Assembly (NCBI GenBank): GCA_963763775.1 | Contig: CAVXPZ010000004.1 | Span: forward strand, 640,001 to 704,000 | Source of the DNA: an uncultured Chloroflexia bacterium | Lineage (GTDB): Bacteria; Chloroflexota; Limnocylindria; Limnocylindrales; CSP1-4 | DNA: 64,000 nt | Direction of reading: 5' to 3' | Program-made: the position numbers and the translations under genes | Notes under the pieces: generated by a model | Databases searched by the model: none | Told to the model about the DNA's origin: nothing | Seen by the model: only the letters and a program-made list of their open reading frames with translations | In this document: piece after piece, positions 1-40,024 of the stretch | Layout: each line of letters begins with the position of its first letter | Position numbering within the stretch: the first letter of the stretch is position 1

Positions 1-1060
1 CCATGTCGGTGGTGCTCCCGGTGTGCGCGACGATGCGCTCGCCATCGAGCGTGCCGTCCGTCCAGCCCAGGCCGTAGCGTTGGTCGCCGACACCCGTGGC
101 GACGACGCCCTGGTGCATCAGCGCGAGGCTCGTCGGCGAGACGACAGCCCGGCCATCCGTGGCGGCACCGGTCTGGGCCACCAGGTAGCGGCCCATGTCG
201 TCCGCGCTCGCGGCGATGAACCCCGCCGACACGAGGTCAGGACGATCGAGAGCGTCGCGTGAGTCGGCGATCCCGAACCACAGTCGGTGGGCTCGCGTCA
301 GGCCCTCCTGTTCCGCGACGGCGTGGTCGGTCGTGGCGGTCGTCATCGCGAGCGGCCCGAAGACGTGCGTCCGCAGGTACGTGCCGTAGTCGACGCCGGA
401 GACCTGCTCGATCAGGCGGCCCAGAACGACGTAGTTCGCATTGGAGTAGTGATAGGCCGCGCCCGGCGCGGACACGGGAGCGACGTCCGCCAGGTCGTCG
501 ACGCGCGCGGCCAGGGACGTGACGGGAGTCGAGAGGGGCTCGGTCCCGGCCGCGGTCGAGATGCCGCTGGTGTGCTCGAGGAGCTGCCGGACGGTGATCG
601 CGGCGCTGGCGTTCGCATCGGCAAGCCGGAACGCCGGCACGTATCGGACGACCGGCCGGTCCAGGTCGACGCGGCCGGCATCGACGAGCTGCATGACGGC
701 GAGCGCCGTGAACGACTTCGTGAGCGAGCCGATGACGAACGGGGTCTGCGCCGTGACGGGACGGCCCGCGTCATCGGCCGAGCCGAAGGCCTGCGTATGG
801 ACGATCCGACCGTCGCGGACGATGACGACAGCACCGCCCGGGATCCCGGAGTCGGCGATCTGATGCGCCAGCCAGGCATCGATCTCGGCGTAGGTCGCCG
901 GGCCCCCGCGGGCCGGCGCCTGGCCGCCCGGGACGACGAGGTTGACCGCGAACAGCACGGCCGCTGCCAGGAACAGGAGCGGACGGACGGGGATCCGTCG
1001 GCGGATCCGAACGAGCGGGGAAGGCATTTCGGTGGGCTCCGATGTGGTGGGGAGGTTCAT
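1..1060 (-). CDS. Serine hydrolase, beta-lactamase/AmpC-like family, secreted (3' end runs off window)
   Basis: Manual translation of the minus strand: N-terminal hydrophobic segment, then SGIPGGAVVIV, F-x-IGSLTKSF (SxxK), LLEHTSG, YHYSNANY (YxN). Absent from the ORF track because there is no stop in the window. Confidence 0.88.
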   Translation of the reverse strand, partial: MNLPTTSEPTEMPSPLVRIRRRIPVRPLLFLAAAVLFAVNLVVPGGQAPARGGPATYAEIDAWLAHQIADSGIPGGAVVIVRDGRIVHTQAFGSADDAGRPVTAQTPFVIGSLTKSFTALAVMQLVDAGRVDLDRPVVRYVPAFRLADANASAAITVRQLLEHTSGISTAAGTEPLSTPVTSLAARVDDLADVAPVSAPGAAYHYSNANYVVLGRLIEQVSGVDYGTYLRTHVFGPLAMTTATTDHAVAEQEGLTRAHRLWFGIADSRDALDRPDLVSAGFIAASADDMGRYLVAQTGAATDGRAVVSPTSLALMHQGVVATGVGDQRYGLGWTDGTLDGERIVAHTGSTTDM

Positions 1061-1203
1061 GGCGCCACGATCGGGCGATCCGGCCTCCGCGCCATCCGTC
1101 TGGCGGCGGAAACGCGACTCCCCCGCGAGACGGAGGCCGGATCCGATGAGCGGGCCGGAACGTCGCGCTCCGAGTCGGCACGGGCTCGCTACACTCGGCC
1201 GCG

Positions 1204-3053
<1,850 letters not shown>

Positions 3054-3057
<4 letters not shown>

Positions 3058-4114
3058 CCCACGACCCGACGCACGCCCCGCGGCCGGACCCCGTGTCGCC
3101 GCCCCTCTCGGCGATCCTCATGTCGCCGCCCGCACGCCCCTCGAAGCCGCCCTCCGCGCCCGTCGTCGACGCGCCGCCCCCGGTCGAGCTCATGATCGAC
3201 GGCGAGACCGTGACGGTCCCGGCGGGCACGACGATCCTCGGCGCGTGCCGCCAGGAAGGGATCGACACCCCGACGCTGTGCTACGCCGAGAACCTGACAC
3301 CGGTCAACGTCTGTCGGGTCTGCGTCGTGGAGGTCGCCGGGTCGCGGGTCCTGGTGCCGGCCTGCTCGCGCAAGGTCGAGGCCGGGATGGACGTGCAGAC
3401 CGACTCGGAGCGCGTCCGGACCTCGCGCAAGATGGTGCTCGAGTTCCTCGGTTCGTCCGTCGACATCTCGCTGGCCGGGGCGCAGGCGCCGGACGGCTCG
3501 ACGGCCGCCTACGCCGAACGCTACGGCGCCGACCCGACGCGATACGGACCGCCGCCGCGCCAGCCGCCGCCGGCGAGCGCGACACGCACGAGGCCGGGCA
3601 TCACCACGCCGCGCCGGGTGACGCCGCCGCTGCGACGGTCGCCCAGCCGACCAAGATCGACAACGATCTCTATGTCCGCGACTACTCGAAGTGCATCCTC
3701 TGCTACAAGTGCGTCGAAGCCTGCGGCGAGGACGCGCAGAACACGTTCGCGATCGCGGTCGCCGGGCGTGGGTTCGACGCCCGCATCTCCACGGAACAGG
3801 CGGTGCCCCTCCCCGAGAGCGCGTGCGTGTACTGCGGGAACTGCATCGGCGTCTGCCCGACCGGCGCGCTGATGGCGAAGCCCGAGTACGACATGCGCGA
3901 GGCCGGGACCTGGGACCCGTCGCAGCAGACGGTGACCGAGACCATCTGCCCGTACTGCGGGGTGGGCTGCGCGGTCGAACTGCACGTGCAGGACGACAAG
4001 ATCCTCAAGGTGACCTCGCCGCTCGACTCCTCGGTCACCGACGGCCACCTGTGCATCAAGGGCCGGTTCGGCTTCGAGTTCGTCAACGAGCGGCCCCCGA
4101 AGCGCGGCCGATGA
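3054..4114 (+). CDS. NuoG/FdhF N-terminal-like multi-Fe-S protein (2Fe-2S, 2x4Fe-4S, Mo-bis-PGD-type 4Fe-4S); frameshift near 3555
   Basis: ATGA overlap with the upstream gene; motifs PTLC...CRVC...[34 protein letters not shown]...CIKG split across ORFs 2847-3872 and 2828-4114. Confidence 0.9.
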
Positions 4115-30511: not shown

Positions 30512-31735
30512 TCAGCCCTGCTGGAGGTAGATCTTTCCGCTCGCCTGGTCGACTTTGATGGGGAGCTCGGTCAACGGCGTGTCCGTCGGCCCGCCGACCA
30601 CCGCGGCGTGGTGTCCCGGGTCGAAGGCGGCGCCGTGGCACGGGCACAGCAGCAGGCCGGAGGCCCGGTCGTAGCGAACGGTGCACCCGGCGTGCGTGCA
30701 GACGGTGTCGTACGCCGCGACCGAGCCGTCCGGCAGTCGGACGATCACGGCGGGGTCGCCGGTCGACTGGACGTGGAACCGTCGCGCCTGACCCACGGGG
30801 ACCTGATCGAGCGTGCCGAGCAACGTACCGGTCACACCGGCGGCGGGGGCGGACGACGGCGCTGCGGACCCTCCTTGGGCCCCCGACACTGCCTGGGCCG
30901 ACGGGGCGTCCGTCGCGCCGCCGGCTGGGGCCGAGCCCGGGTTCCCCTGCGCGGCCGTGGCGTCCGGGAAGGTGCCGGCGCCCTGGTCTGCCGCGGCGAC
31001 GACCGGCGCCGACCGTGACAGGAATCGTCCGAACGCCGCCAGGCCGATGCTGGCGAAGGCGAGGATCCCGAGCTGCAGCGCCGTCCGACGTCCGGGGTCG
31101 GCCGGGTCCTCCCAGCGGGCGGCACCGGCCCAGGCCGAACGCGAGGCCGACGCCGCCTCGCGTCGAGCGAGCCACGACTCGATCGTCAGCACGCCACCGG
31201 AACCGGCCGCGGCCAGCGTGATCCACCCGAGCGCGTACGGGAGGTCCGGCCCGAGGTAGTACGGCCGCGTCGTCCACGATGCGGTCAGGAAGAACAGGAT
31301 CGAGAGGCCGGCGCCGGCGATCGCGCTCCAGCGGTAGAGCAACCCGAGGACGGCCCCGAGGCCGACGGCGATCTCGAGGAGTGAGATCCCCAGCCCGGTC
31401 AGGACCGGGAACGGTTGGGCGAAGATCGTCACGAGCGGCGCGAGCGGCGAGACCCGGACGAATTCCTGGAGCTGCATGGCGATCGACCCTGGACCGTCCG
31501 ACCGAAGGAACGCCGGGTCGAGCAGCTTGTCCAGACCGGCGTACACGAACATCGCGCCCAGGAAGAAGCGGAGGGGCAGCAGCGCCGCGGCCGGGACGGA
31601 TCCGCGGAGGGTCTCCGGCAGGCCGGGCCCCTCGTCGGCCTCGTCAGCCGTCCCGGGAGGTCGGCGTGGCTGGGCGAACGGGTCGAATGCCGCCCCGTGC
31701 GATCGGCGGGCGGAGCGGGAACGTCGTGAGGACAC
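30512..31735 (-). CDS. DoxX/DoxD membrane domain fused to a Rieske 2Fe-2S domain
   Basis: LLPLRFFLG...YAGLDK, EIAVGLG, YYLGPD; C-terminal CTHAGC...CPCHGAAFD. Confidence 0.88.
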   Translation of the reverse strand: MSSRRSRSARRSHGAAFDPFAQPRRPPGTADEADEGPGLPETLRGSVPAAALLPLRFFLGAMFVYAGLDKLLDPAFLRSDGPGSIAMQLQEFVRVSPLAPLVTIFAQPFPVLTGLGISLLEIAVGLGAVLGLLYRWSAIAGAGLSILFFLTASWTTRPYYLGPDLPYALGWITLAAAGSGGVLTIESWLARREAASASRSAWAGAARWEDPADPGRRTALQLGILAFASIGLAAFGRFLSRSAPVVAAADQGAGTFPDATAAQGNPGSAPAGGATDAPSAQAVSGAQGGSAAPSSAPAAGVTGTLLGTLDQVPVGQARRFHVQSTGDPAVIVRLPDGSVAAYDTVCTHAGCTVRYDRASGLLLCPCHGAAFDPGHHAAVVGGPTDTPLTELPIKVDQASGKIYLQQG

Positions 31736-31925
31736 GGGCCATCCTTGCGGTCATCGAGAGCGAGCGGTCAGGGCGCGAGTCTGTCTGCCCGGCGGTTATG
31801 TTCGGGCGCACGGTTGGCCAAGATTCCGAAACCTTTGTGAAGTCTCATCTCCGGCACCATGCGGGGGTCGCCACCGCCCCTCAGACTGTGTCCATCCGCC
31901 GATCCGCCCGGAACGAGGTGATCCC

Positions 31926-32315
31926 ATGCTGGCCGATTCGATGATGGTGACGACGGTCGCGGTGACCGATCTCGAACGGGCGAAGGCCTTCTTCGCCGAT
32001 CGACTCGGCCTGCCGGTGCTCGACGAGCAACCGTTCGCGATCCGGTTCGGTGCCGGGCGCGGGACCCAGATCTCGGTCAGGCGCGGCCAGCCCAATGTCG
32101 GACAGACCGTCGGCCATTTCGAGGTCGACGACATCGAGACCGTCGTGCGCGACCTCACGTCGCGCGGCGTCCCGTTCCAGGAGTACGAGACCCCCAAGAC
32201 CGTCGACTTCATCGCGCAGGTCGGTCCCGCCCGCGGCGCCTGGTTCACCGATCCCGACGGCAACGTCTTCGGCGTTCGGGAGGGCCCGGTGCCCTCCGCC
32301 GCGGCCGCCGGCTAG
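31926..32315 (+). CDS. VOC/glyoxalase-family protein
   Basis: VTDLERAKAFF...LGL, FEVDDI, AWFTDPDGN; RBS GAGGTGA. Confidence 0.9.
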   Translation: MLADSMMVTTVAVTDLERAKAFFADRLGLPVLDEQPFAIRFGAGRGTQISVRRGQPNVGQTVGHFEVDDIETVVRDLTSRGVPFQEYETPKTVDFIAQVGPARGAWFTDPDGNVFGVREGPVPSAAAAG

Positions 32316-32318
32316 CGT

Positions 32319-32344
32319 GAGGCCCTCCCGGTCGGGAGGGCCTC
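32319..32344. terminator. Hairpin between convergent genes
   Basis: gaggccctcccg-gt-cgggagggcctc. Confidence 0.65.
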
Positions 32345-32367
32345 GACGGACGGAGCCGGGTCGTTCC

Positions 32368-35139
32368 TCAGGCTGCCGCGGGGGCCGCGGTTCCCGAGGA
32401 GGTGACAGCCGCGGCCTCGTCGACCGTGCTGATCTTGAGCAGCTTCCTGGCCTCTTCGACCACGATGATCGCCAGGGCGACGAGGAGGCAGATGGCCCAC
32501 TGGTCGGGCGACAGGCTCACCGTGCCCAGGAGCCGCTGAAGGACCCCGAGTTCGGTGGCCAGGATGATCGTCAGGACCGACAGGCCCGTCCCGATCAGGA
32601 GCGGGCGGTTCCCGAGGACGGATCCGCTGAACAGCGACTCGTCCACGTCCGCCGTCTCCAGCGAGGAGAAGAGTCGGAACAGGGCGAAGGTGGTCATCCC
32701 CATCGTGCGGGCGATCGTGTCGTCGTAGTTGGCACTTCCCCAGGCGAGCACGCCGAGCGTGCCGGCGGCCATCACCAACCCGCAGAACACGAGCCAGGTC
32801 AGGAGACGGCGGGGCATGATCTTCTGCGACTTGGGCCGCGGCGGGACCTCCATGAGTCCCTCGCGGGGCTTCCCGTAGCCGAGACCGAGGCCCTGGAAGA
32901 CGTTGACCGTGAAGTTGAGCCACAACGTCTGCAGCGGCAGGAACGGGATGCCGCCGACGATGTCGAAGATGGCCGACCCGAGGAACGTCGCGATGTATCC
33001 GAAGAGCCCCGCCATCTGGAACCGGATGAAGCGCAGCATGTTGTCGTAGACGGAGCGCCCGAGGCCGACCGCCTTCACGATCGTCGCGTAGTTGTCGTCG
33101 GTGAGGATCATCACCGCGGCCTGCTTGCTGACCTCCGTTCCGGTGATCCCCATCGCGATGCCGATGTCGGCCTTCTTGAGCGCCGGGGCGTCGTTCACGC
33201 CGTCGCCGGTCATCCCGACGACATGGCCCTTCTTCTTGAGGATGTCCACCAGGTGGACCTTGTCCTCGGGCGAGACGCGGGCGATGACGCCGATGCCGTC
33301 GATCTCGCGCATCGCCTCGTCATCGCTCATCGCCCGGAACTCGGCGCCGGTGATGGCCCGGCCCTCGATGCCGAGCTGGTGCGCGATCGCCCCGGCGGTG
33401 ACCGCATGGTCGCCGGTGATCATCCGGACCTGGATGCCGGCAGCGTGAGCACGCGCGATCGCATCCTTCGCCGCGGGTCGCGGCGGGTCGACGATGCCGA
33501 TCATGGCGAGGAGCGTGAGTCCGTCGATGGCGGGCAGCAGGTCGGCGTTGGGATCGAACGTCGCCGGGTCGAAGTCCTTCTGGCCGGTCGCCATGACCCG
33601 CAGGCCCTGGGTGCCGAGCCGCTCGTTCTCGGCGAGGAAGCCATCGCGGATCTGATCGAGCGGCACGGCTTTGCCGTCCGGGCCGTGGACGTCCTTCGCC
33701 CGCGCGAGGAGCTGGTCCGGTGCCCCCTTGATGTACGCGCGGATGACGTCCTTGCCATCCGCGTCCTTCATGGCGTGGAATGTCGCCATCATCTTGTAAG
33801 CGGCGTCGAACGGCAGGGTCGCCACCCGCGGGTACTGCTCCCGGGTCAGCGTGGGATCGACGCCGCCCTTGGCCGCCAGGACGACCAACGCGCCTTCCGT
33901 CGGGTCGCCGACGAGCGCGCCGTCGCGGACCTCGGCGTCGGCGCACAGCGCCATCGGCAGGAGGTAGGGCTCGAGCGGGAGGTCGGGCTGGCCGCCGGTG
34001 TGGGTGATCTGCCCGGTCGTCTGGTATCCGTCGCCGCTGATCGCGTACCGCCGCCCGACGATGGCCATCTGGACCGCCGTCATCTGGTTGAGCGTGAGGG
34101 TCCCGGTCTTGTCCGAGTTGAGCGCAGAGGTCGACCCCAGCGTCTCGACCGAGCGCAGACGCTTCATGATCGCCCCCGCCTCCGCGAGCGCCTGCGAACC
34201 CTTCGACAGGATGGCGGTGACGACCGCCGGGAGGGCCGTCGGGATCGCGGCCACGGCGAAGGCGACGGCGCTCAGGAACAGCTCCTGGAGCTGGACGCCA
34301 CGGTACAGGCCGAGCCCGACCGACACCGCGAGCGCAACGCCCGCGATGATCAGGATCTGGTTCGTCAGCGCGTCGAGCTGCTTGGTCAGCGGGGTCTTCT
34401 CGATCGTCGTCGACTGGAGCATCCCGCTGATATGGCCGACCTCGGTGGCCATGCCGGTGGTGACCACAAGGACCGTTCCGGCACCCCTCGTGACCTGGCA
34501 GTTCATGAACGCCATGTCCACCCGGTCGCCGAGCGCGGCGTCGGCGGCGACCACGTCGACCTGCTTGGGCGTGGGGACGCTCTCTCCGGTGAGGGCGGAC
34601 TCGTCGATCTCGAGGGTCGCCGCGGTCAGGATCCGCGCGTCCGCTGGGACGAGGTCGCCCGCCTCGATGTTGACGATGTCACCCGGGACGAGCTGGTCCA
34701 TCGGGATCTCGACGAGGTCGCCGTCGCGCCGCACCTTCGCCTTGACGACCATCATGCCCTGCAGGGCGGAGGCACTCGCTTCCGCCTTGCCCTCCTGGTT
34801 CATCGCCATCCAGGCGTTGAACACCGTCAAGAGGATCAGGAAGACGCCGGTGTAGAACTGGCCCGGCAGGAAGAGACAGACGGTGCCGGCGATCAGCAGC
34901 ACGATCTGCATCGGGTCGGCGTACTGCCGCGTGAACATCTGGAGCGGCGACGCCTTCTTGGCCTCGGCGAACGTGTTCTTGCCATAGGTCGCGCGCCGGG
35001 CGTCCGCCTCGGCCGAGGTCAGGCCGCTGGCAGGGTCGACCTTGAGGCGGCTGGCGGCATCCTCCGGGGACAGCGCGTACCACGCCACATCGGGCGCGGC
35101 CTGGACGGCGCCGGTGGACTGACCGGTGGCGGCGGTCAT
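32368..35139 (-). CDS. P-type ATPase, P2A-like scaffold with atypical membrane ion site
   Basis: TGES, DKTGT, GDPTE, KGAP, MITGD, TGDGVNDAPAL; about 10 TM segments; M4 reads IPTALP. Confidence 0.95.
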   Translation of the reverse strand: MTAATGQSTGAVQAAPDVAWYALSPEDAASRLKVDPASGLTSAEADARRATYGKNTFAEAKKASPLQMFTRQYADPMQIVLLIAGTVCLFLPGQFYTGVFLILLTVFNAWMAMNQEGKAEASASALQGMMVVKAKVRRDGDLVEIPMDQLVPGDIVNIEAGDLVPADARILTAATLEIDESALTGESVPTPKQVDVVAADAALGDRVDMAFMNCQVTRGAGTVLVVTTGMATEVGHISGMLQSTTIEKTPLTKQLDALTNQILIIAGVALAVSVGLGLYRGVQLQELFLSAVAFAVAAIPTALPAVVTAILSKGSQALAEAGAIMKRLRSVETLGSTSALNSDKTGTLTLNQMTAVQMAIVGRRYAISGDGYQTTGQITHTGGQPDLPLEPYLLPMALCADAEVRDGALVGDPTEGALVVLAAKGGVDPTLTREQYPRVATLPFDAAYKMMATFHAMKDADGKDVIRAYIKGAPDQLLARAKDVHGPDGKAVPLDQIRDGFLAENERLGTQGLRVMATGQKDFDPATFDPNADLLPAIDGLTLLAMIGIVDPPRPAAKDAIARAHAAGIQVRMITGDHAVTAGAIAHQLGIEGRAITGAEFRAMSDDEAMREIDGIGVIARVSPEDKVHLVDILKKKGHVVGMTGDGVNDAPALKKADIGIAMGITGTEVSKQAAVMILTDDNYATIVKAVGLGRSVYDNMLRFIRFQMAGLFGYIATFLGSAIFDIVGGIPFLPLQTLWLNFTVNVFQGLGLGYGKPREGLMEVPPRPKSQKIMPRRLLTWLVFCGLVMAAGTLGVLAWGSANYDDTIARTMGMTTFALFRLFSSLETADVDESLFSGSVLGNRPLLIGTGLSVLTIILATELGVLQRLLGTVSLSPDQWAICLLVALAIIVVEEARKLLKISTVDEAAAVTSSGTAAPAAA

Positions 35140-36113
35140 GCCTTCTTCCTCTTCTTCGACTTCTTCGCGGCCTTCTCGGCGAGCTCGGCCTCGATCGGAT
35201 CCGGCGCGGCGCCGGGAGGCGCCTGGCCTTCGAGCTCGACCTTCGCCGCCCCCAGCGCCTCCTTGGCCTCCTTGGAGACCTTCGGGAACTTCGGGTCGAT
35301 CTGGATCAGGGTGTGGGCCAGGACGGCTGCCGCCGCAACGCGAGCGAACGGCTTGTCATCCGCCGGGATCACGTACCACGGCGCCCACGGCGTGCTCGTA
35401 TTCGACAGCACCTCGCTGAAGGCCTTCTGGTAGTCGTCCCAGAACATCCGCTCCTTGGCGTCGTTCGCGCTGAACTTCCAGTTCCGGTCCGCCTCGTCGA
35501 TCCGGGTCAGGAACCGCCGGCGCTGCTCTTCCTTGCTCACGTTCAGGAACATCTTCGCGAACCGGTAGCCCTGGTCGGCGAGGTAGTGCTCCCAGTCGTT
35601 GATCTCCCGGAACCGGCGCTGCCAGATGCCGCGATCCTTGAGCTTGGGCGGGATCTTCTGCCCGGCCAGGATCTGCGGGTGCACGCGGACGACGAGGACC
35701 TCCTCGTAGTAGGAGCGGTTGAAGATCCCGATGTTGCCGCGCTCGGGGAGCCGCTTCTGGTACCGCCACAGGTAGTCGTGGTCGAGGTCCTCGCTCGAGG
35801 GGATCTTGAAGCTGCTGACCTGGACGCCCTGCGGGTTCACGCCGCTCATGACGTGCCGGATCGTGCCGTCCTTGCCCGCGGCGTCCATCGCCTGGAGCAC
35901 CACCAGCACGGCGAAGTCGTCCTGCGCGGCCAGTCGCATCTGGTACTCCGCGAGCATCTCCGTGCCCTGGGCGAGGATGGCCTTCGCCTCGGCCTTCGTC
36001 TGCTGTCGCGTGCCGGACGGGTCGAAGTCCTTGGGCAGCCGGACGCGACGGCCAGGCTCGACGCGGAATGGCTTGATGAAGTCGGCGATCCGCTTGGGTC
36101 CGATGGCAGGCAT
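35136..36113 (-). CDS. ppk2: Polyphosphate kinase 2 (class III-like)
   Basis: QAMDAAGKDG, VNPQG, FNRSYYEEVL, WKFS..D, APWYVIPADDK. Confidence 0.93.
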   Translation of the reverse strand: MPAIGPKRIADFIKPFRVEPGRRVRLPKDFDPSGTRQQTKAEAKAILAQGTEMLAEYQMRLAAQDDFAVLVVLQAMDAAGKDGTIRHVMSGVNPQGVQVSSFKIPSSEDLDHDYLWRYQKRLPERGNIGIFNRSYYEEVLVVRVHPQILAGQKIPPKLKDRGIWQRRFREINDWEHYLADQGYRFAKMFLNVSKEEQRRRFLTRIDEADRNWKFSANDAKERMFWDDYQKAFSEVLSNTSTPWAPWYVIPADDKPFARVAAAAVLAHTLIQIDPKFPKVSKEAKEALGAAKVELEGQAPPGAAPDPIEAELAEKAAKKSKKRKKA

Positions 36114-36251
36114 GGGGCAGGTCCTTTCGAACGACCCGCGAGCGCCGGATGTCGGCAGCGCTCCGGACGACAAAGGATATCGTCCGCACGGGGCGGCCGG
36201 CGCGGCAGATGCCGTTCGTCACCATCCGGGCCAGCTCGAACCACGGCCGCT

Positions 36252-36272
36252 TCATCCCGTGCGGGTGATGCG
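36252..36272 (+). promoter_or_regulatory. Candidate activator box TCATCC-N5-GGGTGA(TGCG)
   Basis: Imperfect palindrome in the divergent ppk2/DUF6325 intergenic region; resembles 48425-48444. Confidence 0.5.
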
Positions 36273-36374
36273 CCGCGACGTCGGGCGTGGTGGACTTGTC
36301 CGTGGATGTCGCTCTGAGCGGCTCGCTCGGCGAGCCGGGCCCGCGGCACCAATCACCGAACGGATGGAGACGCC

Positions 36375-36830
36375 ATGACCGACCGATCCATCGACGAGCT
36401 GGGGCCCGTCGACTTCCTGATCGTCGAGTTCCCCGTGGGATCACAGAACTTCACCGGCGAGGGCGCGGACGAACTCCTGCGGCTCCACGACGCCGGGATC
36501 ATCCGGATCATGGACATCCTCATCCTCCAGAAGGACGAGGACGGCTCGGTCGAGGCCATGGAGCTGTCCGACCTTGACGAGCTGGGCGAACTCTCGCGTC
36601 TCGAGGCGGAGCTCGCGCAGACGCTCGCCGAAGACGATGTCGAGCACCTGGCGGCCGCCATGGACCCGGGCAGCATCGCCGGCGTCCTCGTGTACGAGAA
36701 CCTGTGGGCCGCCCCGTTCGCCTCGGCCATGCGCCGGGCCGGCGGGCAGCTCATCGCCAACGGCCGGATCCCGATCCAGGCCCTCATCGCCGCCGTCGAG
36801 GCGGACGAGCTCGAAGCAGCAGGAGGCTGA
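36375..36830 (+). CDS. DUF6325-family protein
   Basis: LGPVDFLIVEFP, GIIRIMD, LVYENLWAAPF...RRAGG..IA.GRIP. Confidence 0.85.
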   Translation: MTDRSIDELGPVDFLIVEFPVGSQNFTGEGADELLRLHDAGIIRIMDILILQKDEDGSVEAMELSDLDELGELSRLEAELAQTLAEDDVEHLAAAMDPGSIAGVLVYENLWAAPFASAMRRAGGQLIANGRIPIQALIAAVEADELEAAGG

Positions 36831-36831
36831 C

Positions 36832-37038
36832 ATGCCACTCGGACCAGGTCGCCGCGGCGTCGGCGTCGTCGGCGCCCCCGTCGCCAAGACCGCCGCCGTC
36901 GTCGCGGTCGCCAAGCCCGGCCCGTCACCGGTCGCCAAGGCCGCCGTCGTCGGCGCGGCCGTGTCGCCAGGGCCGTCACCCGTCGCCAAGGCGGCCGTCG
37001 TCGGCGCCGTGGTCACCCCGGGTCGCCGGCGCTTCTAG
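36832..37038 (+). CDS. 68-aa basic/hydrophobic peptide with three 17-aa repeats
   Basis: RBS AGGAGG; ATG 1 nt after the upstream stop; repeat copies differ at synonymous positions. Confidence 0.75.
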   Translation: MPLGPGRRGVGVVGAPVAKTAAVVAVAKPGPSPVAKAAVVGAAVSPGPSPVAKAAVVGAVVTPGRRRF

Positions 37039-37052
37039 CCGCCATCGCGGAG

Positions 37053-37074
37053 GCGAGCCGACGCGTCGGCTCGC
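37053..37074. terminator. Perfect 22-nt palindrome after the peptide gene
   Basis: gcgagccgacg|cgtcggctcgc. Confidence 0.55.
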
Positions 37075-37094
37075 GCTCATGGCCCGGAGGGCCT

Positions 37095-37112
37095 ATCGGT
37101 CGGTCGACCGAT
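37095..37112. promoter_or_regulatory. Inverted repeat upstream of the STAND-LuxR gene
   Basis: ATCGGTCG-gt-CGACCGAT, 20 nt upstream of a -10-like TACACT (37133-37138). Confidence 0.55.
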
Positions 37113-37146
37113 GCCACGAAGACGCGCTTGCGTACACTCGCGGCAT

Positions 37147-40024
37147 ATGGATCCCACGACGCTCCTCCAGAGTCCCCTGCTGATCGGTCGCGACCAGCTG
37201 CTCGTGCTCGCCGACGACCGGCTCGAGAAGGCGGCCGCCGGGCACGGGCAGGTGCTGCTCCTGGCCGGGGAGGCGGGCATCGGCAAGACCCGCCTGCTCC
37301 ACGCGCTCCTGCGCAAGGCCGGGGCCGCGGGATTCATCATCAGCAAGGGCGACCTCGCCCCGCAGGACTCGCTCGTGCCGTTGGCGTCGATCCTGGACCA
37401 CGCCCGGACGATGCGCCAGATCCCGGCCTTCGGCACGCTCGGCGACGACCTGCTGGCCCTGCGCCGGGACCGTGGCGCCGATTCGCTCGCGTCGCGGCGG
37501 ATCCTCGTCCATGACATCGCGGGGCGGATCGTCAGCGCCGTGGACCGACCGACGTTGCTGGCCTTCGAGGACCTCCAGTGGGCCGACGAGCTGACCCTCG
37601 AGGTCATCGGGGAGCTCGCCCGACTCGCCCCGGAACGACCCCTCTTCCTGATCGGGGCGTACCGGCCGGATGAGCTCCGGGCCGACGCGATGCATCGCGA
37701 GTGGCGGGCGCGGCTGCTGAGCCAGCGTTTCGGCGAAGAGGCCGTCCTCGCACCATTGACGTACGACGAGACGGCCCTGGCCACGACCCTCATCCTGGGC
37801 ACGGGACTGCCCGCGTCGCGCGACGTCGTCAGTGCCATCTTCGAACGGTCCGATGGCGTGCCCCTCTATATCGAGGAACTGCTGGCCGCGCTCCGCGGTG
37901 CCACGGCGGACGGCCGGGCGATCCGGGACGCCAAGGTCCCGACCTCGATCGAGGACGCGATCATGGCGCGGGTCGGACGTCTGTCGGCCGACGCCCAGGT
38001 CGTGGGTCGAGCGGCCGCCGTGATCGGCCGGTGCTTCGTGCCGAGCGTCCTGGCCGGCATGCTGGATCGTCCCGTCTCCGACCTCGACGAGCCGCTCGAC
38101 GAGCTCACGCGGAACGCCTTCATCTTCACGTACGGCGAAGGCATCCTCGACTTCCGCCACCAGCTCATCCGCGATGCGCTGTACCGCAGCGTCCCGTCGA
38201 GCGAGCTGCGTCGCCTCCATGCTCGCGCCGGGGAGTTCGGGGCGCAGCTCGAGGGCGCGTCCGAGATCCATGCCTCCGCGCACTTCGAGCGGGCCGGTCT
38301 TCGCCCGCAGGCGTACCGTGCGGCCCTCGCGGGCGCCGACGCGGCGAGCGCCGTCTCGAGCCGGCATGAGGCGTTCGAGCTGTACGCCCGCGCTGTGGCC
38401 AACATCCCGGACGAGCTTTCCGCCCTCGATCGAGCCGCCTTGTACGACGCGTACTGCACCTCCGCGTTCGCCGTCGACGACGTCGAGATCGGGGTGACCT
38501 CGGCAAAGGAGGCCCGGCGCTACTACCTCGAGGCCGGGCGGCCGATCGAGGCCGCGATGGCGCTGGTGAGCCTGGCCGGGATGGGCCGCCGCGATGTCTG
38601 GCCACACGAGGAGCGCGTGCGACTCCTCGCCGAGGCGGAACACGACCTCGAGGACCTGCCCGAATCTCCCGAACGCATGGCCCTCCTGTCCGACATCCGC
38701 CTGTTCCAGGGGATCATCGAGCTCGAATTCGACCGCCCTCGAACCCGCCGCGGTGCTCTTCGGGGAAGCGCGCCGACTCTGGCTCGCGGCCGGCGAGACG
38801 GACACGACCGACTTCGAGTGGACCGCCGCCCAGGTCGACGTGCTGTCGGGGCGCATCGATGCCGGGCTCGAGACGATGCTGCGGCTGGCCCGGGAGTCCC
38901 GCGACGCGCGGCTCGAGAGCAGCGGCGTGACCGCGTACCGGACCGCGGCCGCGATCGCCGTGCGGGTCATGGCGTACCCAGCCGCGGAGATCGGCCTGCG
39001 CGAGGGACTTCGCTATGCCGACGAGATCGAGCAGTCCTACTGCCGACACGTGATGGCCGCGACGTCGGCCCACGTCGCGTGGGCGTCCGGCCGATGGGAC
39101 GAGGCAGTCCTGGCGGCTGAGCTCGAGCTTGTGGAGCGGGGCAGCCGGCGCGGGACGCTCGGGTCGCGCGACGCGCTCGGGTTCGTGGCGTTCGGCCGCG
39201 GTGAGGTCGACCGTGCCCGCGACCTGCTCGACGGGTCGCTCGCCGTCGCGCGCGACAGCGCCGAGGTGGAACTCGTGATGCCCGCCATGTGGGGCCTCGC
39301 CGAGACGGCGCTGATCGCCGGCGAGCCCGGCGTCGCGATCGAGCACGTCGAGGCAGCGGATGCCCTCGCCACGCGCACGGGCGAGCGGGCACTGCTCGTC
39401 CCGTTCGTCGTGACCGGCGTCCGGGCCTACCTCGCAGCGCGCCGCCCGGCGGACGCGGAACGTTGGGTCCAGAGCGTCGCCACGCACCTGACCGGCTGGG
39501 AGCGGGCCCGCCCCGCGCTCGACCATGCGGACGGGCTTCTCCGCCTGACGACGGGGTCGACGGTCTCGGCGCGCACCAGCCTCGAGGCGGCGGTCAGCGG
39601 CTGGGACGCGCTCGGGCGCACCTGGGAGAGCACCAACGCCCGGCTCGACCTCGCGTCATGCCTGATCCGCGGCAATCGCCACATGCATGCGATGCCGATC
39701 CTGACCGAGGTCCGTGCGATCGCCGAGGGCCTGCGGAGCCGCCCACTGCTCGAGCGGGTCGAGGAGTTGTCGAGCCTCGCCCGTCGACGCGGGGTCACCG
39801 AGGAGCCGTGGCACCCGCTGAGCGCCCGAGAGTTCGAGGTCGCGAGCCTCGTCGCCCAGGGCCAGACCAATGGCGAGATCGCCGAGGTCCTCGGGCTGTC
39901 GCCGAAGACCGTCAGCGCCCACCTCGAACACATCCTGGCGAAGCTCGGCGCCCTCCGGCGGGCCGAGGTGGCGGCGTGGGTGGCAACGGTGCGGACACCC
40001 GAAGGGGTCGGCGCCGGTCGCTGA
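37147..40024 (+). CDS. Large AAA/STAND ATPase-TPR-LuxR regulator; frameshift near 38735
   Basis: GEAGIGKT, FEDLQWAD, G.PLYIEE, FRHQLIRDALY; C-terminal LSAREFEV...G.TN.EIA..L..S.KTV..H...IL.KLG. Confidence 0.92.

Follow-up and report, generated by a model that had tools for sequence, protein, structure and literature searches.

A clade of P-type ATPases with a remodeled transport site is linked to polyphosphate kinase 2 in two bacterial phyla

P-type ATPase subfamilies are defined by the residues at the transport site. Prokaryotic diversity is still undescribed, with CtpE, CtpH, and CtpI as examples (Palmgren 2023, PMC10654040), and the text of this review mentions polyphosphate (polyP) zero times. 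The gene analyzed here lies in a window of 64,000 nt, i.e., the whole stretch of DNA under study (contig CAVXPZ010000004.1, positions 640,001 to 704,000), from an uncultured Chloroflexia bacterium. It directly follows ppk2, the gene for a polyphosphate kinase 2 (PPK2). The best solved relative of its product, the query, is LMCA1 of Listeria monocytogenes (6ZHF; E 2.2e-139, residues 37-901), with SPCA1 and SERCA next. With LMCA1 the query shares the domain order, an aligned Arg in membrane segment M8, and the retained Asn742 in M6, and the query clade is nested in the group of LMCA1 and the SPCA1/PMR1-type single-site P2A Ca2+/Mn2+ pumps. In contrast to LMCA1 and PMR1, it has Thr in M4, Leu in M5, Asn in M6, and a clade-specific Glu828, it scores below the equivalog cut-off, and its clade shows an obligate-looking linkage to PPK2, which canonical P2 pumps of the same genomes lack. 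A carboxylate-free site under strong selection is thus found together with the full catalytic machinery, and the combination of this site with a tie to PPK2 in two phyla suggests a class of substrate, or a way of coupling, that has yet to be described. No description of a PPK2/P-type ATPase pairing was found in the literature searched, and the clade may already be named in TCDB or by Chan et al. 2010, which is said to be a survey of uncharacterized prokaryotic P-type families.

The gene and its catalytic motifs have the following positions:

32368..35139, minus strand, P-type ATPase gene P0001, 923 amino acids, ATG start, one unbroken frame
34579..34590, minus strand, TGES, dephosphorylation motif of the A-domain (residues 184-187)
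34099..34113, minus strand, DKTGT phosphorylation motif with Asp343 (residues 343-347)
33190..33210, minus strand, TGDGVND hinge motif (residues 644-650)

A preliminary description of the window had reported that these three motifs are intact and that the gene has no frameshift, and both statements held, as the 923 codons are open and all three motifs are present. Five Pfam domains scored above the cut-off, namely Cation_ATPase_N, E1-E2_ATPase, Cation_ATPase, Hydrolase, and Cation_ATPase_C. DKTGTLT, KGAPD, DPPR, MITGD, and TGDGVNDAPALK are also kept. The gene is predicted to encode a catalytically competent P-type ATPase. The hinge form TGDGVNDAPA[LI]K and M[IV]TGD are clade-wide, and the minor variants across the clade comprise KGAAP, MVTGD, a terminal I in place of L, and, in two rows, DPAR or DPLR. 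The catalytic motifs were kept in all subclades examined, with the exception of the single representative P0147. This clade member, a metagenome representative from a single-member cluster, has the degenerate motifs TGGT, DESGC, and VGCDVTD; it looks catalytically dead and is a probable pseudo-enzyme.

The transport site was mapped by a HMMER alignment to LMCA1 (6zhf), and the mapping was checked at seven ligand columns of a 151-sequence alignment. The relevant positions are:

34228..34245, minus strand, M4 motif IPTALP, Thr301 at the canonical PEGL Glu position
32992..33033, minus strand, M5 segment RFIRFQMAGLFGYI, Leu712 as Asn768-equivalent and Tyr715 as Glu771-equivalent
32902..32919, minus strand, M6 segment LNFTVN, Val745 as Thr799-equivalent and Asn746 as Asp800-equivalent
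32674..32676, minus strand, Arg822 in M8, Glu908-equivalent, aligned with the M8 Arg of LMCA1
32656..32658, minus strand, Glu828 in M8, six residues past Arg822
32551..32553, minus strand, Glu863 in M9

In the HMMER alignment, AAIPEAL of LMCA1 M4 corresponds to AAIPTAL in the query. For M5, FAGNLGA is replaced by MAGLFGY, with Asn changed to Leu and the Ala of LMCA1 to Tyr, and for M6, NLVND is replaced by NFTVN, with Asp changed to Asn. The M6 residue Asn742 is retained and was invariant in 70 homologs. The full site signature is T301-L712-Y715-N742-V745-N746-R822, and in the seven columns the query reads TLYNVNR versus ENENTDE, ENENTDQ, or ENANMDQ in ordinary homologs. The first two of these are the two-site SERCA pattern, and the third is the one-site pattern of PMR1/LMCA1-like pumps. 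As ordinary homologs show the SERCA pattern at these columns, the mapping is sound. The preliminary description had placed IPTALP near 34228-34245, which is an exact match, and its Glu to Thr exchange was confirmed by the LMCA1 alignment; the residues that it gave for the query in M5, M6, and M8 were likewise recovered in the 151-sequence columns.

The further claim that every membrane carboxylate has been lost is true for the canonical positions, but not overall, because Glu828 and Glu863 are present in M8 and M9. Of the 36 clade rows compared, 34 have Glu at position 828, whereas Asn takes this place in 13 of 17 canonical rows. Glu863 was found in all eight compared rows of the query's Asn/Thr746 subclade and is unconserved elsewhere; it may be the charge partner of Arg822. 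Among the 27 positions that separate 54 Asn-type from 8 Asp-type sequences, no acidic membrane residue compensating for the Asp746 to Asn exchange was detected. The absence of carboxylates at Thr301, Leu712, Tyr715, and Asn746 makes it very unlikely that the query subclade would pump Ca2+. The protein is, as judged from its sequence, P2A by descent and not to be filed as a Ca2+-ATPase. The 120 database clusters among the matches listed are 82-89% identical to the query, and their source names are either 'Ca2+-transporting ATPase' or proteins of Limnocylindrales/Chloroflexota metagenome-assembled genomes (MAGs), and the former annotation is probably wrong for these proteins.

The conservation of the remodeled site was quantified in two sets. 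The first comprised the close loci, i.e., the best 80 of 246 relatives in a scan of one genome per species, which by their titles are all Chloroflexota MAGs. Thr was present in M4 in 80 of 80 close loci. M5 to M8 were readable in 77 of them, and 70 had T-[LC]-[FY]-N-V-N-R, four had Thr746 (N-V-T-R), and three had Asp746. The second set consisted of 20 orthologs with 70-89% identity and a mean column identity of 85%. In these, A297-A305 (M4) and Arg822 were invariant, and so were 17 of the 18 positions 732-749 (M6), and M4 and M6 were among the most conserved segments within the query subclade. This invariance, in comparison with the column mean of 85%, shows that the rebuilt site is under purifying selection and is not decaying. 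Sequencing errors or private substitutions were ruled out by the conservation of the residues across the 77 readable loci. The preliminary description had considered that close homologs might carry PEGL and NxxTD, and they do not. Only the query subclade has lost the M6 Asp, whereas relatives at 58-74% identity keep this Asp but not the M5 Asn.

Loci with the pump in two to five tblastn pieces in different frames were left out of the alignments. Such split pump genes occur in L026, L033, L039, L043, L045, L056, L062, L066, L070, L072, L074-L078, L080, and L083, and also in the genomes G017, G024, and G001. The splitting across frames in many MAG loci probably reflects assembly indel errors and not pseudogenes.

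Next to the site itself, the phylogenetic placement was analyzed with FastTree (LG model, midpoint rooting) using 131 and 56 sequences. The query falls into a clade with an SH-like support of 1.00 that is nested in the single-site bacterial P2A pumps and adjoins pumps with the signatures E[TS]FNMDQ and ENANMDQ. Members are the query group, its Asp-keeping relatives TLFNVD[HRNGS] at 58-74% identity, P0123 (ELINVIV), the P0127 group (MLYNITL, with PMAMP in M4), P0135 (TLLNVAT), and P0147, and the further signatures ELFNIDR, ELFNVDR, ELFH[VI][NS]L, LLFNVNL, and [SD]LF[SN]IDG. Leu at the Asn768-equivalent and a hydrophobic or aromatic residue at the Glu771-equivalent are clade-wide traits. The query has all the defining features, i.e., L712, Y715, E828, intact catalytic motifs, and an adjacent ppk2. 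The M4 Glu was missing in 13 of 140 aligned representatives, and a search against 1.84 billion representatives yielded only a few nearest clusters at 50% identity.

The scores with NCBIfam models were in agreement with a separate position. Every equivalog cut-off was missed (P2A, P2B, P3, P4, P5, and KdpB), and only the generic P-type model TIGR01494 was passed (263 bits, cut-off 62.3). The best equivalog was the PMR1-type model TIGR01522 with 548.2 bits (cut-off 798.3), while TIGR01116 reached 497.9 bits (cut-off 703.4) and TIGR01517 398.6 bits (cut-off 507). Membership in other families was rejected: for P3A, TIGR01647 gave 377.1 versus 615.5, and position 746 is Asn, so that a protonatable M6 Asp is missing; for P4, TIGR01652 gave 58.5 versus 431.25, and the M4 motif is AIPTALP and not PISL; for P5, TIGR01657 gave 202.9 versus 618.25, and PP(E/D/A)xLP is absent; and the kdpB model gave 133 bits versus a cut-off of 528. 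The suggestion in the preliminary description that this may be an uncharacterized P-type ATPase class gained support from the tree, the missed equivalogs, and the conserved site. Taken together, the sequence data support that the remodeled site defines a monophyletic, uncharacterized P-type clade derived inside LMCA1/PMR1-like Ca2+/Mn2+ pumps.

The clade has members in both Chloroflexota and Actinomycetota. When P0127 was searched against 401 sampled Chloroflexota genomes, nine of them matched at E <= 1e-180, including three families beyond that of the window's pump, and the nearest ESM Atlas clusters to P0127 were mostly from Actinomycetota. The named Actinomycetota carriers came from plasmid-collection records. 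Plasmid pSRIMDV3 of Streptomyces rimosus (NZ_CP100444, about 1369-1373 kb, L189) encodes a clade pump with the signature ELFHVNL and, directly upstream, a class III PPK2 that is 59% identical to that of the window. A plasmid copy of another Streptomyces sp. has a clade pump without PPK2 and mobile elements on its flanks. The pump of Nonomuraea gerenzanensis is 59.7% identical to the query and has the signature TLFNVQN, and no PPK2 lies within 4 kb.

The upstream gene of the window and its junction with the ATPase gene are:

35136..36113, minus strand, ppk2, class III polyphosphate kinase 2, ATG at 36113, open frame reaching TTG at 36173
35136..35139, minus strand, ATGA overlap of the ppk2 TGA stop and the ATPase ATG (gcATGAcc)
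35141..35150, minus strand, Shine-Dalgarno-like purine-rich aggaagaagg

The start at 36113 agrees with the N-termini of 19 orthologs. The ppk2 product matched the Pfam domain PPK2 (PF03976) with E 3.6e-62 and scored 355.7 bits with TIGR03709, the model for one-domain PPK2 proteins (cut-off 247.2). Its closest solved relatives are the class III enzymes 6au0/6an9 (E 9e-86) and 5lc9 (3e-64). The PPK2 class labels follow in part the depositors' molecule names, and the class is assigned here from sequence. The window's genome contains only two PPK2 genes in all. The overlap of ppk2 with the ATPase start as ATGA at 35136-35139, noted in the preliminary description, was found as described, and the Shine-Dalgarno-like run lies alongside, so that the two genes are predicted to be translationally coupled in the window. 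A promoter and terminator scan of 32200-36500 yielded 0 sites of either kind. No Rfam family reached the gathering score in 10 loci, and for window positions 31000-38000 only four sub-threshold matches at chance level were obtained; thus, the loci give no riboswitch hint to the cargo.

The linkage to ppk2 turned out to be conserved far beyond the window, as the preliminary description had left to be checked. PPK2 was counted by tblastn, because clusters of stop-to-stop open reading frames (ORFs) had merged PPK2 with the pump. PPK2 adjoins the pump in 69 of 80 close loci. A class III gene was upstream in 29 cases, a class I gene was upstream in three cases, a class I gene was downstream on the same strand at a distance of up to about 0.3 kb in 36 cases, and one locus had both. 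Eight loci had full flanks and no PPK2, and three were too truncated to judge. The class I PPK2 of the upstream loci shares about 30% identity with the class III protein, and its best solved relatives are 5ll0 and 3czq. P0127, around which the deep branch was sampled, shares 45-48% identity with the query. The 80 metagenome loci of this branch had a class I gene upstream in 40 cases and a class III gene upstream in 13 cases, while three had full flanks without PPK2 and 24 were truncated. PPK2 was thus present in 53 of the 56 deep-branch loci with both flanks readable.

As a control, 81 genomes of the query's family were searched for PPK2 within 1.5 kb of a pump. PPK2 was near 17 of 25 clade pumps and 3 of 4 paralogs with 45-47% identity, but near 0 of 22 canonical P2 pumps. 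By our reading of the tables, a clade pump was present in 23 of 64 PPK2-positive and in 0 of 17 PPK2-negative family genomes, with genome G465, which is flagged as unpublished, entering the count only as PPK2-positive without a pump. The finding of two PPK2 classes in the same place speaks for selection on the activity common to both and against a gene order that was simply inherited. With two PPK2 classes, two positions, branches only 45% identical, and two phyla, inherited gene order alone would have difficulty to explain the linkage.

Some arrangements are more complex. In the tandem arrays L097 (G284:C10), G481:C177, and G495:C46, a TLFNVDN pump is followed by a class III PPK2 and then by a second pump with the signature ELFNIDR (45-47% identical). 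The G495 array has a third pump after the second, so that one PPK2 is common to two or three clade pumps. A looser recurrence was seen in several genomes of the family (G208:C1, G385:C4, and G432:C9), where a class I-like PPK2 is located 5-15 kb from a different P-type ATPase that shares about 35% identity with the query.

Class I and class III PPK2 both make ATP from ADP and polyphosphate. As both classes share this reaction, local ATP regeneration is the simplest common denominator. We propose a model built on the observed sequence features, clade, conservation, linkage, and PPK2 classes. The clade would have arisen inside single-site bacterial P2A Ca2+/Mn2+ pumps, and the transport site would then have been rebuilt. 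PPK2 would fuel the pump by regenerating its ADP to ATP at the expense of the polyP store, the coupling would run in the direction from polyP to the pump, and the pump could thus be operated when respiration or substrate fails to supply ATP. We give about even chances to this reading, a polyP-fueled pump module with a cargo other than Ca2+. It suggests that bacteria use polyP as a dedicated fuel line for a membrane pump in energy shortage, and the pair in Streptomyces rimosus, a cultured and genetically tractable carrier, makes the question testable.

The strong purifying selection on the new site implies that this site still serves a function of the protein. Among the possible cargoes we tentatively favor a monovalent cation (Na+, K+, or H+) that would be bound through neutral ligands. 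The M4 backbone, Thr301, Asn742, Thr744, Asn746, and Gln749 would provide the neutral ligand set, and pairing of Arg822 with Glu863 would leave a neutral polar site suited to Na+ or K+. The formal charge of the site is -1 in ELFNIDR and TLFNVDH, 0 in MLYNITL and TLFNVDR, and +1 in the query, and this variation across the clade indicates diversified small-ion specificity and not one shared cargo.

Several points weigh against a polyP-fueled pump. The linkage reveals a functional tie without a direction, and PPK2 could store ATP as polyP instead, or the task of the pump could be to handle ions that polyP sets free. An adjacent PPK2 was missing in 8 of 77 close loci and in 8 of 25 clade pumps of the family sample, and it was also missing in the TLFN[AV]DH subclade (L082, L086, L101), in Nonomuraea, and in one Streptomyces plasmid copy. 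The genomes are kin, so that the counts overstate independence. In addition, the pair may partly travel as a mobile unit, which would inflate the counts across kin; signs of mobility are its scattered occurrence within the genus (13 of the 24 relatives that were searched) and the copies on Streptomyces plasmid records. The trees were calculated with FastTree only. With regard to a cation cargo, the canonical positions of the query subclade are formally charged +1, except if Glu863 is the partner of Arg822.

This positive charge, together with the invariance of Arg822 in the subclade, would be in line with an anion pump, as the preliminary description had suggested; the anion could be phosphate, chloride, or sulfate, with phosphate being moved in step with polyP turnover. 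An analogous case is the exchange of a carboxylate for Thr or Asn that turns proton-pumping rhodopsins into chloride pumps, and genes for SulP-STAS anion transporters were found in 28 of 80 close loci, CHAD domains in 10 of 80, and a CLC gene 3 kb away within the window. We nevertheless regard an anion cargo as unlikely. Arg822 could be neutralized by Glu863 or by Glu828, and the idea gains weight if Arg822 is unpaired. In other PPK2-linked members the Arg is missing (MLYNITL, LLFNVNL) or an Asp or Glu is still present (TLFNVDH, ELFNIDR), and their charge of 0 or -1 means that anion binding cannot be a clade-wide trait. P-type ATPases are also not known to carry anions. The more specific version, for which we see only a slim chance, is that the query subclade (Thr301/Asn746/Arg822) would be the first anion-translocating P-type ATPase, most likely for phosphate or chloride, and fueled by PPK2, in a clade of polyP-powered pumps with several non-Ca2+ cargoes. 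The linkage to PPK2 is the firmest new fact, while an anion or phosphate cargo is speculative and is deduced only from the formal charge of the site. Equally improbable, in our opinion, is a pump for a divalent cation (Mg2+, Ca2+, or Mn2+) that would use other ligands and export the metal freed as PPK2 consumes polyP. PolyP granules contain Mg2+, Ca2+, and K+, the clade descends from single-site Ca2+/Mn2+ pumps, Glu828 is clade-specific, and the ELFNIDR members keep the M4 Glu, the M6 Asp, and the M8 Arg like LMCA1. However, the query subclade has no carboxylate at any canonical ligand position and has an Arg instead, the M5 Asn is Leu throughout the clade, and binding of a divalent ion without acidic ligands is unlikely.

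In P4 and P5 pumps, a change of the M4 motif is the mark of a switch in substrate. Throughout the clade, the residue in place of the PEGL Glu is small or hydrophobic (Thr, Met, Leu, Ser), and M5 and M6 contain many aromatic residues. A substrate that is large or organic, i.e., a lipid, a polyamine-like organic cation, or polyP itself, would fit these features. Yet the P4 and P5 models gave scores of only 58.5 versus 431 and 203 versus 618, neither PP-x-x-P nor PISL is present, the neighbors do not include a conserved gene for an accessory subunit, and the length and the domain order are those of an ordinary P2A pump, so that such a substrate seems quite unlikely to us. Least of all do we expect a protein that does not transport, be it an ATPase with an uncoupled or a regulatory role (e.g., as a sensor or as a source of ADP acting with PPK2) or a slowly decaying gene. 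The ligand set varies strongly between subclades, and P0147 lacks the catalytic motifs, but within the subclade hardly any part is better conserved than M4 and M6, all other lineages examined have intact catalytic motifs, the frame of 923 amino acids is open, and the 120 database clusters among the matches listed are 82-89% identical.

The comparison with more distant families revealed partial similarities. As in the P3A H+-ATPases AHA2 and Pma1, M4 is devoid of the PEGL Glu, and a membrane-energizing role would fit the link to polyP. The sister lineages TLFNVD[RH], with a single M6 Asp and a basic residue, resemble the Asp684/Arg655 logic of P3A. In contrast to P3A, the query clade is P2A-derived, and the query subclade lacks the M6 Asp. 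Similarly to KdpB (P1A), in which the ion is held largely by neutral ligands, the query has a Thr after the M4 proline (IPT...), but its N-terminal and C-terminal domains are of the P2 type, and genes for KdpA or KdpC are not adjacent. The carboxylate-poor canonical site and the changed M4 motif are reminiscent of P4 flippases and P5B polyamine pumps; these families are eukaryote-only according to Palmgren 2023 (PMC10654040), whereas the query is bacterial. CtpE (proposed as 'P6') and CtpH/CtpI of mycobacteria, set side by side with the query by description only, are also prokaryotic and beyond the established P1-P5 subfamilies. The same review places CtpE outside all families (PMC10654040), in contrast to the query clade, which is nested in P2A.

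The further neighborhood was less uniform. A neighboring gene is:

36375..36830, plus strand, DUF6325 gene, divergently oriented (Pfam E 9.6e-07)

The preliminary description had raised the possibility that the homologs form a clade syntenic with ppk2 and DUF6325. The clade and the synteny with ppk2 were found, but DUF6325 was present in only 13 of 80 close loci and is not a conserved partner. Neighbors were clustered from ORFs filtered by codon-position GC, a filter that can miss genes and admit antisense ORFs. DUF2252 and MFS genes were each found in 9 of 80 loci, and DUF1269, DUF308, and DUF7144 also recur. The CHAD domain binds polyP (see PMC6537752). Six loci (L019, L042, L046, L047, L053, L078) have the same-strand order pump, class I PPK2, CHAD, and SulP-STAS anion transporter, and this string looks like a larger polyP module.

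Two further loci of the window's genome contain P-type ATPase genes. At G000:C1:1223000-1236000 (L190), the gene for a distant P2-like ATPase, which shares about 29% identity with the query, is divergent from ppk1, which is followed by CHAD and ppx. The N-terminal part of this ATPase lies in a different frame, and its site, read roughly by tblastn, is ELFEIDQ. Pumps thus adjoin polyP genes twice in this genome. A partial second pump paralog is located outside the window at G000:C4:719802-720464 (minus strand); it has 62% identity over residues 699-919 and is cut by the contig end.

Within the window, a LAL/LuxR-type regulator (AAA_16, TPR, GerE) is split over the overlapping frames 37111-39120 and 38594-40024, both on the plus strand. 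Related loci encode it in a single ORF of about 1000 amino acids, e.g., in L067 at 788-4018, and the split version could be either a frameshifted pseudogene or an assembly indel. On the other side of the pump, a 407-amino-acid ORF at 30512-31735 (minus strand) combines an N-terminal DoxX/DoxD membrane domain with a C-terminal Rieske [2Fe-2S] domain.

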